A DNA stretch of 64,000 bases from a virus (lineage: Duplodnaviria; Caudoviricetes): positions 1 through 64,000 of IMG/VR virus record IMGVR_UViG_3300031867_000003. The stretch is one strand, 5' to 3'. Made by a program: the position numbers and the translations under genes. Positions 42,290-45,668 of this stretch are shown one piece after another; position 1 is the first letter of the stretch; each line of letters starts with the position of its first letter. The notes under the pieces are model-generated. The model was not told the origin of the DNA. It ran no database searches and saw nothing but the letters and a program-made list of their open reading frames with translations.

Positions 42290-42478
42290 TAGGCTTCCTA
42301 CCGGGCGAGGTATTATCCCACGCCCAATAATCACGGATATTCCGCGAGGGATATTTCGTGCGGGTTATTTTGGCCCCGAAAGCTGAGGGAGTATATTTTG
42401 ATGATGGGTTATACACCGTTACGATGTATTCCGGAGAAATATATTACCACTCGGCAAAACCGATGTAAATTTTATACA
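42290..42478 (+). ncRNA. Candidate tracrRNA with anti-repeat (5' end approximate)
   Basis: ACCGATGTAAATTTT (42459-42473) pairs over 15 bp, with G-U, to repeat AGGATTTACATTGGT, plus 4 bp after a bulge; upstream hairpins. Confidence 0.65.
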
Positions 42479-42498
42479 GTGCCGAATGTGAATTTGAG

Positions 42499-43059
42499 GT
42501 TGTAGATGTGAGGATTTACATTGGTACAAAACCTTTGCCAATCGTTCTACGTCCGAATACTTGTTTTATAGATGTGAGGATTTACATTGGTACAAAATCT
42601 TAGCCATCAAAATCCCTCATTTGTAACTGTTTTGTAGATGTAAGGATTTACATTGGTACAAAACCTTATCTGGAAGATATGTCAGTGAAGGAAGTTTTGG
42701 AAATGTAAGGATTTACATAGGTACAAAACTTCAAGCCAGCTTGATTTAAGTTTACGCTTGTTTTGTAGATGTTAGAATTTATATTGGTACAAAACCCACC
42801 GGATCCGAACGATACTGATTGACATGTTTTGTAGGTGTAGGGATTTACATTGGTACAAAACTAGAGCCGACAAGGGGAATGCATAAGTTTCGTTTTGCAG
42901 GTGCAAGGATTTACATAGGTACAAAACCATAAAGACAAAGCCCGAAACGCCATCAACGTTTTGTAGGTGCAAGGATTTACATAGATACAAAAACTCGGCA
43001 GTTTCGAAGTTCTATAGACTTCTACTTTGGAAGTGTAAAGATTTATGTGGAGATATAAT
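42499..43059 (+). CRISPR. CRISPR array: 8 repeats plus a degenerate terminal repeat, 8 spacers of 29-30 nt
   Basis: Consensus GTTTTGTAGATGTAAGGATTTACATTGGTACAAAAC (36 nt); starts at 42499 (34 nt), 42563, 42629, 42694, 42760, 42826, 42892, 42958, degenerate 43024. Confidence 0.95.
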
Positions 43060-43061
43060 AA

Positions 43062-44408
43062 ATGATTACGAGAAAAATTCAGTTATATCCTATTGGAGAT
43101 GAAAAAGAAGTTGATAGAGTATACACATATTTAAGAGATAGCATTAAATCGCAGAATAAAGCGATGAATCAATATATGTCTAATCTGTATGTGGAAGAAT
43201 TATTAAATGCGTCCAAAGAAGATCGAAAAGAATTAAATGCATTATATACTAGAATTCCGACCAGTAAAAAAGGAAGCGCTTATAGTCTGGATTTGGAATT
43301 CCAAAAAGGACAGATGCTTGGTTATATAACCAGAGCAATAGATTCAGATTTTAAAAAATCACTAAAAGACGGGTTGATGTATGGGAAAGTATCTCTCCCG
43401 GTTTACTCAAATAGCAATCCGTTATTAGTTCATGTGAATTATTGCAATTTGCGTAGTAAGGTTCAAAAACAAACAGGCACTAACACTGGTATTTACCACA
43501 ACTACGAATCTCATCAGGAGTTTTTATCTCATTTGTATAAAACAGATATAGAAATATATCTTCAGTTCTGCAATAATATTTTGTTTAAATTAAATCTCGG
43601 TGATAGCCTCAGAAAATCTCGCGAAATCCGTTCAGTAATACAGAAAATATTTGAGGAAGAATATATTATCCACGGTTCGCAGATCCAGTTAAAGAAGAGG
43701 AAAACTGGCAAGGGCGAAGATATATTCTTACTGCTATCAATCGAAACTCCGGTTGTTAAGCATGAACTTGATGAAAATATTGTTGTCGGCGTAGATCTCG
43801 GCGTGGCAAATCCGGCAGTATGTGCAGTAAACATTAACGGCAATTATAAATTCCTGGGCGACGGAGAAACATTCCTTCATTATAAACAAAAATCCAAAGC
43901 CGAAAGACGCAGACTTCAGAGAGCTCTAAAGTATACAAATGGCGGTCACGGAAGAACCAAAAAACTGAAAGCACTCGATAGATTGAAAGAACGTGAGAGC
44001 AACTTTACTACAACGTATTCTCATAAGCTCTCAAAAGATGTTGTAGATTTTGCCATTGAACAGCATGCCAAATACATCAACCTCGAGGATTTAACCGGAA
44101 TAGATGACAAAGATGGTAAAAAACTTCTCGATTGTTGGAAATACTACGAACTTCAGCAGTTTATTATCTACAAAGCTACTCATCATGGCATAGTAGTCCG
44201 CTTTATTAATCCAAAATATACATCTCAGACTTGTTCCAAGTGCGGAAATCATGCCGAGGGGCAGCGTGACGGTCATAGTTTTACATGTAAAGATTGTGGC
44301 GAAGAGCTTGATGCCGATCTTAATGCAGCCAGAAACATTGCTATGTCAACAAATTTTGTTGAAAGAGGCAAGAAGAAAAAGAAAAAGAATAAAACCGATA
44401 ATAAATAA
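43062..44408 (+). CDS. cas12f: Cas12f-like (TnpB-superfamily) RNA-guided nuclease
   Basis: RuvC GVDLG, INLEDL, DADLNAARNIA all intact; GGHGR..K, TSQTCSKCG..CKDCG; 448 aa; abuts the array. Confidence 0.85.
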   Translation: MITRKIQLYPIGDEKEVDRVYTYLRDSIKSQNKAMNQYMSNLYVEELLNASKEDRKELNALYTRIPTSKKGSAYSLDLEFQKGQMLGYITRAIDSDFKKSLKDGLMYGKVSLPVYSNSNPLLVHVNYCNLRSKVQKQTGTNTGIYHNYESHQEFLSHLYKTDIEIYLQFCNNILFKLNLGDSLRKSREIRSVIQKIFEEEYIIHGSQIQLKKRKTGKGEDIFLLLSIETPVVKHELDENIVVGVDLGVANPAVCAVNINGNYKFLGDGETFLHYKQKSKAERRRLQRALKYTNGGHGRTKKLKALDRLKERESNFTTTYSHKLSKDVVDFAIEQHAKYINLEDLTGIDDKDGKKLLDCWKYYELQQFIIYKATHHGIVVRFINPKYTSQTCSKCGNHAEGQRDGHSFTCKDCGEELDADLNAARNIAMSTNFVERGKKKKKKNKTDNK

Positions 44409-44409
44409 T

Positions 44410-44546
44410 ATTTTGCCTGAGACGGCATTGTTACTACCGAAGAAATGAATTCGGTAGCTAATAACTGACCAATTAAGCGGTGGGTTGGGGTTAGCTCCGA
44501 AAGGTGATTATGTCCAAGGATGAAGTAACTACCGCATCTACTAAGA
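44410..44546 (+). ncRNA. Second scaffold-like RNA downstream of cas12f
   Basis: Hairpins TGCC/GGCA, CTACCGAA/TTCGGTAG, GCGGTGG/CTACCGC; CCGAAAGGTGA; GCATCTAC complementary to the repeat 5' half. Confidence 0.45.
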
Positions 44547-44570
44547 GATAAAATATAATAGTTGGAAGGA

Positions 44571-45668
44571 GTGATTACTATAGATATTGATGTTAGTGAA
44601 TTACGGGTGGGATAGGTTTATAGTTATAAAGAATTGTGTGAACTGATAGGTGCTGAGTATAAAAAAGGCGCTGGCAAAACTTATCAACTAGAAAAATTTG
44701 GAGAAACAGGATTTCAGAGATTTTTTAATTTTGAAAAAGTAGGACGAGGAAAGTATGAGGTTCTTGAAATCTATGATGAACCGCTCCCTATAGAAGATGA
44801 AAGACATAAAGGTAATAACAAAGTATACAAACATTACATAGAGCTGGTATTAATGAATTATCTGGCGAAGAAAGGTACTCACGTTGAAACATTTACTATG
44901 AGAGATCTGTGGCAGCTCCTCGGAATGATAAATGAAAAATATGGGAAAGTAGATAACGATAAACTACTTTCTATGAATAGCTGCATTACGTCATATGAAA
45001 TTAATAATTTCTATTTTAGGAGTGATAAAAAGTTACGTCAAATATTATTATCCGCACTTAAAAATTTGCGCAATAGAAGATTAATAGACTGGCAATTACA
45101 AACAGTTGTCTGTAAAGAGAAGAACGGCAAGGAAGAATGGTTTGTAGCTAATGATAGCGAAATAGAATTAATTCTTGATGCAGAATACGAGATACTTCAT
45201 CGAATGGGATTTACAAAAATGTTTCAGGTGATTTCTTCTTTTAAAACAAAAGAATTTTATACAGCCGTCGAGAATCTTTTATATAAGAAGAAAAAATGGA
45301 AAAATTATTATAAGCGATATAAAATTATATTCAACGCCAACAACATAAAAGAATCCGTTCCCGACGTCGAAGCAGAGCTAAAAAGAGCATTATTAAATGC
45401 AAAAATCATATTATACTTAAATAACGAAGCAGAAACGGCATATAATTCAAAACTAAAAGAATACAATGGCAATCTGGCGCATGAAGTTTACGTTCAAGGA
45501 AATATTATTGAAGCACTACATGCTTTCAAATATCCCGATGATTATGTAGTTGCTCAGAGGATGTTGTCAGATGAACTTATTAATACGCATGATTACTCGC
45601 CCGAAATTATTAATGAGTTACTTAATACAGAAGCGTCAGATAAAGAATTGGATATGATGTTTCCTTGA
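44571..45668 (+). CDS. Hypothetical basic protein with in-frame TAG at 44613 (possible DNA-binding/initiator protein)
   Basis: AAGGAG RBS at about 44566-44571; frame continues ELRVG*VYSYKELCELIG into the track ORF. Confidence 0.65.

Follow-up and report, generated by a model that had tools for sequence, protein, structure and literature searches.

Organization of the locus

The locus belongs to a phage from the cattle gut, whose record is 202 kb long (202,175 bp) and has a CheckV completeness of 100%. We analyzed a stretch of 64,000 nt of this record, hereafter called the window, and all coordinates refer to it. A tracrRNA-like scaffold, a CRISPR array and a nuclease gene follow one another there on the same strand:

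about 42290–42476, + strand: tracrRNA-like scaffold (conserved in 10 aligned loci; RNAalifold and pair counts)
42459–42472, + strand: anti-repeat (RNAduplex; helix 3 of the consensus structure; covariation)
42492–42498, + strand: leader end ATTTGAG (agrees with the leader-anchoring motif of type II-A group 1)
42499–42532, + strand: repeat 1, shortened to 34 nt by the loss of TT from its GTTTT start (comparison with the sister locus L138 and run X2)
42533–42891, + strand: spacers 1–6 and repeats 2–6, leader-side, unique to the window phage (compared with the L138 spacers)
42892–43023, + strand: repeats 7–8 and spacers 7 and 8, old units in common with the sister phage (compared with L138)
43024–43059, + strand: degenerate terminal repeat containing GGAG (43049–43052; same arrangement in the related loci L137 and L138)
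43062–44408, + strand: gene of a 448-aa Cas12f-type (TnpB-derived) nuclease, as judged from Pfam, NCBIfam and PDB sequence matches
44409–44633, + strand: structured intergenic region 3′ of the nuclease gene, of uncertain membership in the system (fold z-score −1.8)

The array (42499–43059) consists of eight clear repeats, which start at 42497/42499, 42563, 42629, 42694, 42760, 42826, 42892 and 42958, and a degenerate ninth at 43024. Its period is 65–66 nt, its repeats measure 36 nt and its spacers are, in order, 30, 30, 29, 30, 30, 30, 30 and 30 nt long. This confirms the 36-nt repeats and 29–30-nt spacers of the preliminary description, which had also correctly placed ATTTGAG directly before repeat 1. 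Repeats of 36 nt, spacers of about 30 nt and an ATTTGAG leader end flush with GTTT are all features of type II-A array design.

As described earlier, repeat 1 lacks two Ts of its GTTTT start. The full start is present in L138 and in run X2 (TT inserted behind 42499), so the missing TT is a strain-specific deletion; since repeat 2 is full length, the deletion must be younger than the last acquisition. The preliminary description took it as a sign that acquisition may now be frozen. At the other end of the array, the idea that the degenerate last repeat supplies the ribosome-binding site of the nuclease gene holds in the sense that its GGAG, 9 nt before the ATG, is a plausible Shine-Dalgarno site.

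Pairwise, the window repeats differ by 2–5 nt, whereas active host arrays have uniform repeats; this sits uneasily with the array being filled by host machinery. Their variants occur in contiguous blocks (GTGAGG only in repeats 1 and 2, GGTG in repeats 6–8, GTGC in repeats 7 and 8), as expected if repeat 1 is copied at each insertion.

The absence of cas1, cas2 and cas9, first noted for the window, extends to the entire phage and to csn2 as well. Profiles of Cas1, Cas2, Csn2 and Cas9 gave no match across the whole 202,175-bp record, in which the sole match to a Cas9 model was an HNH-like stretch scoring 21 bits. Given that all four genes are absent from the whole phage, the locus is not a type II-A system. 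For those related loci whose genes we listed or examined, the 3–4-kb flanks contained none of them either.

The nuclease

The open reading frame at 43062–44408 is intact and encodes 448 aa. In an alignment of 12 proteins, the RuvC residues D245, E342 and D419 and a CxxC...CxxC zinc ribbon are invariant. Pfam recognized Cas12f1-like_TNB (3.7e-24) as well as OrfB_IS605. By sequence, the best solved relative is PDB 8hr5 (E 4e-62), which we take to be CnCas12f1, although the N-terminal half of the nuclease is barely alignable to it; further PDB matches were 9nzo, 8j1j, 7wju and 7l48.

Among the NCBIfam models, guided_TnpB was passed with 176.6 bits against a cut-off of 100. The Cas12f2 model reached 131 bits, under its cut-off of 450, which is uninformative on Cas12f1-like membership because that model is specific to Cas12f2. 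Judged by its sequence, the window nuclease is a Cas12f-type protein, in line with the intact RuvC nuclease of a miniature type V kind proposed before, and it presumably cleaves DNA. Casδ (Cas-delta; PMC12721324), which we considered as an identity for the protein, is an unrelated family of larger proteins.

Predicted pairing of the scaffold with the repeats

The conserved core of the scaffold, at about 42358–42472, could be aligned in 10 loci. It is closed by a helix between 42361–42366 and 42373–42378, and its GAGGG/CCACTC helix holds an insertion of about 60 nt in the window phage. The GAGGG...CCACTCGGCAA element resembles the Cs1Cas12f1 tracrRNA among the entries listed in PMC10090079. The anti-repeat (42459–42472) pairs with positions 16–28 of the repeat, in its 3′ half (ACATNGG region), with a duplex energy of −22.8 kcal/mol (RNAduplex).

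In the consensus structure of the 10 loci (RNAalifold, pair counts), 96.6% of cells are paired and 9 pairs have changed on both sides. None of 500 shuffles was as good, and slid controls had 32–45% of cells paired. Three scaffold helices covary, the anti-repeat:repeat helix among them; its variable N position is T:G in the window, A:U in the related locus L002 and G:U in L004. Since the anti-repeat pairs with the repeat and covaries with it across 10 loci, the nuclease very probably uses the crRNAs of the adjacent array. The preliminary description had allowed for a nuclease that ignores these crRNAs, and the computed covariation of the tracrRNA-like scaffold with the repeats argues against that.

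The same result bears on a reading in which the nuclease is a TnpB with an omega RNA of its own, for example one from the structured stretch behind its gene, with the array as an independent neighbor. The protein does pass the guided_TnpB model, and the region after the gene (44409–44633) is structured and contains a short scaffold-like motif. However, this motif is a 17-nt match, all that the region shares with the upstream scaffold, and conservation of the region does not extend across the family: L137 retains it at about 90%, and it is absent in the related locus L003, in which the next gene starts 26 nt past the nuclease stop. The anti-repeat covaries with the repeat across loci, and scaffold, array and gene are linked in all relatives, with the array on either side of the gene. 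Moreover, neither transposon ends nor a second copy came to notice; the other TnpB-like gene of the phage is only 22–23% identical to the nuclease. We regard this reading as extremely improbable.

An Rfam search at E up to 1 gave no match, and a promoter and terminator scan stayed at shuffle level. Among the sequencing runs listed, there was no RNA dataset holding the locus.

Related loci and spacer turnover

The same scaffold-array-nuclease layout was found in at least 15 related phage loci, and such recurrence indicates that the arrangement of array and gene is not due to chance. The junction (A/T)TTTG(A/G)G-GTTT is kept in at least 15 loci of the family, with nucleases down to about 23–45% identical to that of the window. 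Without any mismatch, ATTTGAG is present in 11 family arrays; 4 further family loci and the IscB-like loci L085 and L115 have it with one base changed. The 20–40 nt upstream of it are not conserved. In the repeats, positions 1–7 and 21–36 carry about 1.75 bits and the middle 1.07 bits. Spacers of the family are mostly 30 nt (30 spacers) or 29 nt (16), with a few of 31 nt (4) and 33 nt (2).

In the relatives L006–L009 (55% identity), the scaffold is fused to a single guide, followed by one more repeat. In L012, repeats of three flavors lie in blocks, a pattern for which recombination between phage arrays is a simpler explanation than insertion alone, the mode that host-driven filling would entail.

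One relative is the sister phage L138, with a nuclease 97% identical to that of the window, a gene 94% identical at the nucleotide level and a leader identical in 81 of 83 positions. Its last two spacers match spacer 7 (42928–42957; 27/30 identical) and spacer 8 (42994–43023; 29/30) of the window. These two trailer spacers are the only ones in common: L138 has four other leader-side spacers versus six in the window, and window spacers 1–6 resemble none of them (at most 15/30). The sisters share the oldest spacers and differ at the leader end, which shows that the array grows there. The array thus gains spacers at its leader end.

Phages of this kind occur in gut samples of cattle, sheep and goats (runs X1–X24). 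Further array variants were present in other ruminant runs (X2/X3 and X4); in X2/X3, spacer 7 is gone and spacer 8 is kept. A scan with a 30-nt leader word detected no further sister loci among the records available, a single-protein search of IMG/VR found no relatives, and blastn of the locus against the phage collection gave no match.

Comparison with type II-A arrays of bacteria

ATTTGAG-GTTT is the published leader-repeat junction of type II-A group 1 (PMC5382924). Together with the csn2-linked arrays that we fetched from gut Firmicutes, this upholds the earlier statement that the ATTTGAG leader end is typical of type II-A. No class of bona fide II-A array among those fetched was without the motif. 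It flanks an Erysipelotrichales cas9-cas1-cas2-csn2 array as well as an orphan array of that genome. Of 14 csn2-linked arrays from the family of a Butyrivibrio MAG, 10 have it and 4 have it with one base changed. Read in reverse, it is also present in 22 of the 26 Lactobacillales arrays (the other four are slightly different).

The Lactobacillales arrays are reversed, as CTCAAAT comes after their last repeat, so we used them only as a control for the leader motif and rejected them as sharers of the 3′ end of the phage repeat. Single matches in Bacteroidales genomes proved to be unrelated palindromic elements. Cas9 had no match in two Butyrivibrio MAGs carrying related cassettes, both of them incomplete.

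The junction also speaks to the possibility that another integrase inserts the spacers, either host Cas1-Cas2 of a different CRISPR type or an unrecognized phage enzyme. Repeats of 36 nt with spacers of about 30 nt occur in type II-C and V-A arrays too, so the geometry would suit such a source, and many phage genes have no known function. The 7-nt leader end, though, is a specific motif of II-A group 1 and stands flush with GTTT, while no Cas1 or Cas2 profile matched in the phage. We therefore hold the involvement of another integrase to be very unlikely.

The preliminary description proposed matching the repeat to host type II-A arrays, and its ends did match among the arrays sampled. The last 13 nt of the family repeat are 94% identical to the repeat of the orphan II-A array. 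At the 5′ end, the first 17 nt of the L003 repeat are identical to csn2-linked host repeats, and the L012 and L139 repeats have 17 of their first 20 nt in common with them; only 8–12 of the first 20 nt of the window repeat match any sampled host repeat. Over its whole length, the window repeat reached 28/36 against the sampled II-A repeats, which was not above the shuffle control (19 of 300 end-keeping shuffles reach it). For the relatives L003, L012, L002, L139 and L004, the whole-repeat match to II-A repeats was significant.

Such 5′ ends raise the question of a dual use, in which a host tracrRNA would also take part in processing the array transcripts, and host Cas9 would be loaded with them (as spacer plus the 5′ part of the downstream repeat). 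The 17 nt of L003 that are identical to csn2-linked host repeats constitute the part that pairs with a Cas9 tracrRNA, and the 17 of 20 nt in L012 and L139 point the same way. A dual use also fits a proposal of Al-Shayeb et al. (PMC7162821), in which a phage whose repeats resemble those of its host may draw on the Cas proteins of that host. Against it stand the mere 8–12 matching positions of the window repeat and the repeat middle, which is the least conserved part in the family. We consider it distinctly unlikely.

A wider version, which we judge quite unlikely, treats the repeat as a two-handled adaptor: its 5′ part together with the leader would serve insertion by the host II-A machinery and its 3′ part the phage Cas12f, and in phages whose repeat has a host-identical 5′ part, this part would also pair with the host tracrRNA and load Cas9. 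If true, two unrelated nucleases would draw their spacers from one and the same phage array, and the virus would write its own immune memory with host enzymes.

Spacer targets

The searches for protospacers yielded one uncertain candidate, a 27/30 match of spacer 7 in a bacterial polysaccharide deacetylase gene, which gives no PAM side. When the spacers of the whole family were compared by local BLAST with the phage genome and every fetched locus, only self matches came back, and INPHARED searched with the array at E up to 10 returned none. Exact 22-mers of spacers 1, 2 and 5 were absent from IMG/VR, as was that of spacer 1 from JGI metagenomes. The L139 array had only two borderline matches in 401 genomes, both overlapping repeat sequence.

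How the array may be filled

Taken as one co-oriented unit, the scaffold, the array and the nuclease would make up a self-contained type V-F interference module. Because it is the 3′ half of the repeats that the anti-repeat pairs with, a guide would start with this half and continue into the adjoining downstream spacer, which is also the guide form of other Cas12f systems. Matching DNA would be cut by the complex.

The array gains spacers and yet the phage has no insertion genes, so host machinery most likely fills it. On balance, we lean towards a phage-borne type V-F (Cas12f) module whose array is filled by the type II-A machinery of the host. The repeat would then in effect be a chimera: its 3′ half would serve as the Cas12f handle, and the leader end (ATTTGAG), the repeat termini (GTTT at the start, CAAAAC at the end), the repeat length (36 nt) and the spacer length (30 nt) would be of type II-A. 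New spacers would be added at the leader end by Cas1-Cas2(-Csn2-Cas9) of a Firmicute host bearing a type II-A system, during infection or lysogeny. The integrase acting on the phage array would accordingly be the host type II-A one.

The preliminary description had put forward this same route. The junction, the turnover at the leader end and the lack of adaptation genes in the phage speak for it; on the other side stand the two (incomplete) Butyrivibrio MAGs with related cassettes and no Cas9 match, and the chance-level whole-repeat similarity of the window repeat to the sampled II-A repeats. The strong divergence of the window repeats implies that insertion must be rare. In addition, spacers selected by II-A machinery carry a 3′ PAM and Cas12f enzymes need a 5′ PAM, so that only a fraction of the spacers acquired in this way would be usable by Cas12f. 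Import of whole repeat-spacer units from host arrays was considered and rejected, as the repeat 3′ halves in all phage arrays are of the phage type.

Alternatively, the II-A look may be inherited: an ancestor would have captured or mimicked a II-A-type array, no host II-A integrase would be in play now, and the arrays of today would change mainly by recombination between co-infecting relatives, along with deletion and duplication. The three blocks of repeat flavors in L012 agree with this, as do the loss of spacer 7 with retention of spacer 8 in X2/X3 (a deletion or recombination event), the strong divergence among the window repeats and their chance-level whole-repeat similarity to host II-A repeats. 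However, recombination only reshuffles and new spacers need a source, and no integrase lies in the examined flanks of related loci. Selection maintains ATTTGAG while the leader sequence beside it drifts, and the sister differences are strictly at the leader end. We find this reading unlikely, though still credible.

Comparison with known systems

Adaptation genes are nearly always missing from the CRISPR systems of phages, which raises the question of how the arrays of such systems acquire spacers. Filling of the window array by host type II-A machinery would bring together traits of several known systems.

The first is type V-F. Like Cas12f proteins, the nuclease belongs to the 400–500-aa TnpB-derived proteins with RuvC and a zinc ribbon, and like theirs, its tracrRNA has an anti-repeat for the 3′ part of the repeat; adaptation genes are missing from many such loci. 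The GAGGG...CCACTC element is common to the scaffold and a Cas12f1 tracrRNA among those listed in PMC10090079. Further type V-F relatives are OsCas12f1, RhCas12f1, Al3Cas12f, AsCas12f and Un1Cas12f1. Ordinary bacterial Cas12f1 repeats, as represented by 14 entries of Supplementary Data 1 of PMC10090079, are 29–32 nt long and have other termini. The window repeats, in contrast, have 36 nt, a GTTT start and a CAAAAC end, with 30-nt spacers and an ATTTGAG leader end. They are unlike these 14 entries, which argues against the clustering with ordinary type V-F repeats that had been named as an alternative at the outset. The window system is also phage-borne, and its array lies upstream of the gene and co-oriented with it.

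The locus resembles type II-A group 1 arrays (S. thermophilus CRISPR1 type; PMC5382924) in its repeat length (36 nt), spacer length (30 nt) and leader-repeat junction; like them, it grows at the leader end and closes with a degenerate repeat. It differs in that the phage has no cas9, cas1, cas2 or csn2, the 3′ half of the repeat is a type V tracrRNA handle, and the repeats diverge inside a single array. Phage arrays with host-like repeats have been described before by Al-Shayeb et al. 2020 (PMC7162821).

Adaptation in trans is the third point of reference. An array without adaptation genes of its own relies in such cases on co-resident Cas1-Cas2, and its leader and repeat ends match those of the donor, as would be the case here. 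In Flavobacterium, type VI-B arrays are filled by a type II-C module. Unlike in the known cases, the borrower here would be a virus whose own effector belongs to a different CRISPR type, and the resemblance to the donor is confined to those parts of the repeat that matter for integration.

Finally, the system recalls TnpB/omega RNA elements and TranC, as the transposon-to-CRISPR intermediates are named, in that the nuclease passes guided_TnpB and L006–L009 have a scaffold fused to a single guide. It differs from them in its full array with turnover, its separate anti-repeat and, as far as seen, its lack of transposon features.

New here are the tracrRNA-like scaffold, the family-wide II-A junction and the spacer turnover at the leader end, which natural sister phages display and which is relevant to how phage arrays acquire spacers. 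The family offers a concrete, testable answer to that question: a II-A leader anchor of 7 nt and II-A repeat geometry grafted on a Cas12f guide handle. If confirmed, adaptation would here cross both CRISPR types and genomes (from host to virus). The repeat could then be divided into the parts that serve the integrase and those that serve the effector, and compact Cas12f variants would become available with arrays programmable by a well-studied adaptation module.

The array and its nuclease

The 202,175-bp virus record, of which the window covers the first 64 kb, is complete according to CheckV. Its source is a bovine gut metagenome; sheep and goat gut runs contain relatives. The locus is laid out as follows:

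about 42290-42476, + strand: tracrRNA-like scaffold, a structured stretch richer in GC
42492-42498: leader end ATTTGAG, abutting repeat 1 without a gap
42499-43059: CRISPR array with 8 clear 36-nt repeats and a degenerate ninth, period 65-66 nt
Ninth, degenerate repeat: holds GGAG, nine bases 5′ of the nuclease ATG
43062-44408: nuclease ORF, 448 aa

The spacers are, in order, 30, 30, 29, 30, 30, 30, 30 and 30 nt long, and repeat 1 has only 34 nt, two Ts being gone from its GTTTT start. When the phage was searched for the window repeat, no repeat-like sequence was found elsewhere. These observations agree with the preliminary description as regards the geometry (36-nt repeats, 29-30-nt spacers, ATTTGAG flush with repeat 1), the two missing Ts and the degenerate last repeat as the plausible source of the cas12f ribosome-binding site.

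In the 448-aa protein, Pfam recognized Cas12f1-like TNB and OrfB_IS605 domains, and the protein passes the NCBIfam guided_TnpB model. By sequence, the nearest solved structures are Cas12f enzymes (8hr5 first, 4e-62, then 9nzo/9nzr, 8j1j, 7wju, 9i8y and 7l48), ISDra2-type TnpB being much more remote; the N-terminal half is hardly alignable to 8hr5. When the protein is aligned with 11 relatives, RuvC residues D245, E342 and D419 and the four cysteines of the zinc ribbon do not vary, as the earlier claim of an intact RuvC nuclease would have it. Because of these residues, we treat the protein as a presumably active Cas12f-type nuclease.

A second TnpB-family gene lies outside the window (74514-75662 of the whole record, G000; L135). 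It scores 187 bits on guided_TnpB, has two in-frame TAG codons and no adjoining array, and shares only 22-23% identity with the Cas12f-type protein. Directly 3′ of the nuclease gene, at 44409-44633, a structured intergenic region shares a 17-nt match (..CCGAAAG.TGA) with the upstream scaffold. The sister phage locus L137 has this region at about 90% conservation, and L003 lacks it; it could be a remnant resembling omega RNA, or else an unrelated small RNA.

A conserved scaffold predicted to pair with the repeat

Scaffold, array and homologous nuclease gene follow one another in every relative fetched. Nuclease identity to the window's protein is 97% in the sister locus L138, 71% in L013, 67% in L139, 66% in L002, 64% in L003 and 57-59% in L004, L010 and L012. 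Further cases, with the array on the opposite side of the nuclease gene, come from IMG/VR contigs L111-L120.

Alignment of ten scaffolds gave a consensus with three helices, in the third of which a CCNATGTAAA-type anti-repeat (42459-42472 in the window) pairs with the first repeat at ACATNGG. In these helices 96.6% of cells are paired and nine pairs are altered on both sides. None of 500 shuffles did as well, and sliding the partners by 1-3 columns lowered pairing to 32-45%. At the variable N, repeat and anti-repeat covary: the pair is T:G in the window, A:U in L002 and G:U in L004. Such pairing is the arrangement of Cas12f tracrRNA:crRNA pairs, and the GAGGG...CCACTC element of the scaffold also occurs in one published Cas12f1 tracrRNA. 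It is very probable that the 3′ half of the repeat, with the spacer downstream, guides the nuclease.

Other layouts were also seen. In an IMG/VR phage (L119:5831-7881), a 510-aa TnpB-like gene has an array on either side, both equipped with an anti-repeat of their own and a GATTTGAG leader end. In relatives of 55% identity (L006:2800-3000, also L007-L009), the scaffold hairpin runs straight into a single 29-nt guide, after which comes another repeat-like unit; ATTTGAG is absent. Annotation labels these loci a Roseburia 'transposase', yet their context is phage; the arrangement is a minimal array or else the remains of a decayed one.

Type II-A features of the array

In group 1 type II-A loci, whose repeats have 36 nt, leader and repeat meet at ATTTGAG/GTTT (PMC5382924). 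Eleven phage-family arrays have a leader whose last seven bases read exactly ATTTGAG, and four others deviate from it by a single base. The preceding 20-40 nt vary freely in sequence and length, which argues that the leader end is under selection. The motif was likewise present in bacterial controls. An Erysipelotrichales genome carries cas9-cas1-cas2-csn2 and then an array preceded by ATTTGAG, as well as an orphan II-A array of 15 repeats, the leader of which is duplicated (L090:6067-7026). In the family of a Butyrivibrio MAG, csn2 occurs in 20 of 201 sampled genomes; the 14 csn2-linked arrays examined have 36-nt repeats, 30-nt spacers and ATTTGAG at the leader end (10/14) or a motif one base off (4/14). 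Lactobacillales arrays read backwards show its reverse complement after the array, exact in 22/26 and with small deviations in 4/26. The Erysipelotrichales orphan repeat differs from the cas9-linked one (L122:9685-10514) only in its last ~10 nt, and its 13 terminal bases equal the phage-family repeat end.

In 14 entries of PMC10090079, ordinary bacterial Cas12f1 repeats have 29-32 nt and other ends, so the phage repeats do not cluster with these type V-F repeats. Conservation of the family repeat is ~1.75 bits at positions 1-7 and 21-36 and 1.07 bits in the middle. This fits a 5′ end kept for an integrase and a 3′ half kept for tracrRNA and nuclease.

As a control for whole-repeat similarity, ends were fixed, the interior was shuffled and the product was compared, with gaps, to the best of 14 host repeats; this already reached ~25/36 identity. 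The window repeat scored 28/36 against the best of the 14 sampled host repeats, a value equalled by 19 of 300 shuffles. The L003 repeat, which scored 30/36 and agrees with host repeats throughout its first 17 nt, is clearly above chance; likeness is also significant for L012, L002, L139 and L004, but not for others. The II-A style proposed earlier for the window array thus holds, at the sequence level, for junction, termini and geometry, but not for the repeat as a whole. Alternatively, host Cas9 might additionally use array transcripts where the 5′ part of the repeat equals the host's, as it does in L003.

Arrays of phage-family design (36-nt GTTTTAC...GGGTACAAAAC repeats, leader end CTTTGAG or CTTTGGG) also adjoin genes for an IscB-like protein of 463-476 aa with RRXRR and HNH, on a Butyrivibrio MAG contig (L085:3323-5829) and an IMG/VR contig (L115:1187-2575). 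The L115 array lies at the other end of the contig from the gene region; L085 has three leader-plus-array cassettes in tandem. Bacteroidales matches to the repeat-end pattern (L015, L023, L034, L045, L057, L036, L052, L065, L084) were rejected as chance matches unrelated to CRISPR, produced by a short, palindromic, many-copy element of TGTACAAAAGAA...TTCTTTTGTACA units.

Spacer turnover and its likely source

Leader-end acquisition typically leaves arrays with old spacers in common, new spacers private to each and nested variants of the repeat, and this pattern was seen here. Sister L138 (leader 81/83 identical, gene 94% identical) ends in window spacers 7 and 8 (27/30 and 29/30), and its four leader-side spacers are unrelated to the six of the window. 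In other ruminant runs, a third array variant retains spacer 8 but has another spacer in front of it, and in a fourth all spacers are different; L004, L010 and L012 have near-identical scaffolds and no spacers in common. Repeat variants along the window array form contiguous blocks (one is confined to repeats 1-2, others to 6-8 or 7-8), as expected if each insertion copies repeat 1. Turnover could instead proceed mostly through recombination between phage arrays, some of which is hinted at by the three repeat flavours of L012. The TT deletion of repeat 1 is absent from L138 and run X2; since repeat 2 has its full length, the deletion must be younger than the most recent insertion. Two adjacent spacers in L139:812-907 are ~87% identical; they may stem from two acquisitions that sampled variants of a single target, or from a duplication with later drift.

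Cas1, Cas2, Csn2 and Cas9 had no match in the complete phage genome, so that the absence of cas1, cas2 and cas9 reported for the window extends to the whole phage. No adaptation genes lie within 3-4 kb of those related loci whose genes were listed or examined. Given these absences, the host would be the simplest source of the spacer-inserting enzyme, and the junction motif points to a type II-A integrase; insertion by an integrase other than the host type II-A one is a less probable alternative.

The searches run found no convincing protospacers. The sole candidate target lies in a genome of the Butyrivibrio MAG's family:

L156:1501-1530 (G038:C2:10376-10405): candidate protospacer of spacer 7, within the 5′ portion of a polysaccharide deacetylase gene on the chromosome

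It matches at 27/30, the first 16 exactly, in A-rich sequence; the E-value is 1.5e-5 per genome and ~0.006 for all 401 genomes together. The match could reflect targeting of a host gene or be due to chance. With that E-value and composition it is insufficient for a PAM call. Adjoining genes are nrdG-like, a histidine phosphatase and a GGDEF response regulator. Type II-A machinery picks spacers by a 3′ PAM and Cas12f requires a 5′ PAM, so only part of the insertions would be useful; this mismatch may be a reason for short arrays and for time for repeat drift.

Comparison with known systems

Cas12f and V-U variants that lack adaptation genes have been described in phages before, and it has been proposed that phages whose repeats resemble the host's could make use of host Cas proteins (PMC7162821). 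No paper in the searched literature links ATTTGAG with Cas12f, TnpB or phage arrays. The mechanism is of interest as it can be tested directly by a standard adaptation assay. What is new is the combination of a viral type V-F effector and tracrRNA with an array bearing type II-A integration signals, together with its conservation across a phage family and the natural evidence of polarised turnover.
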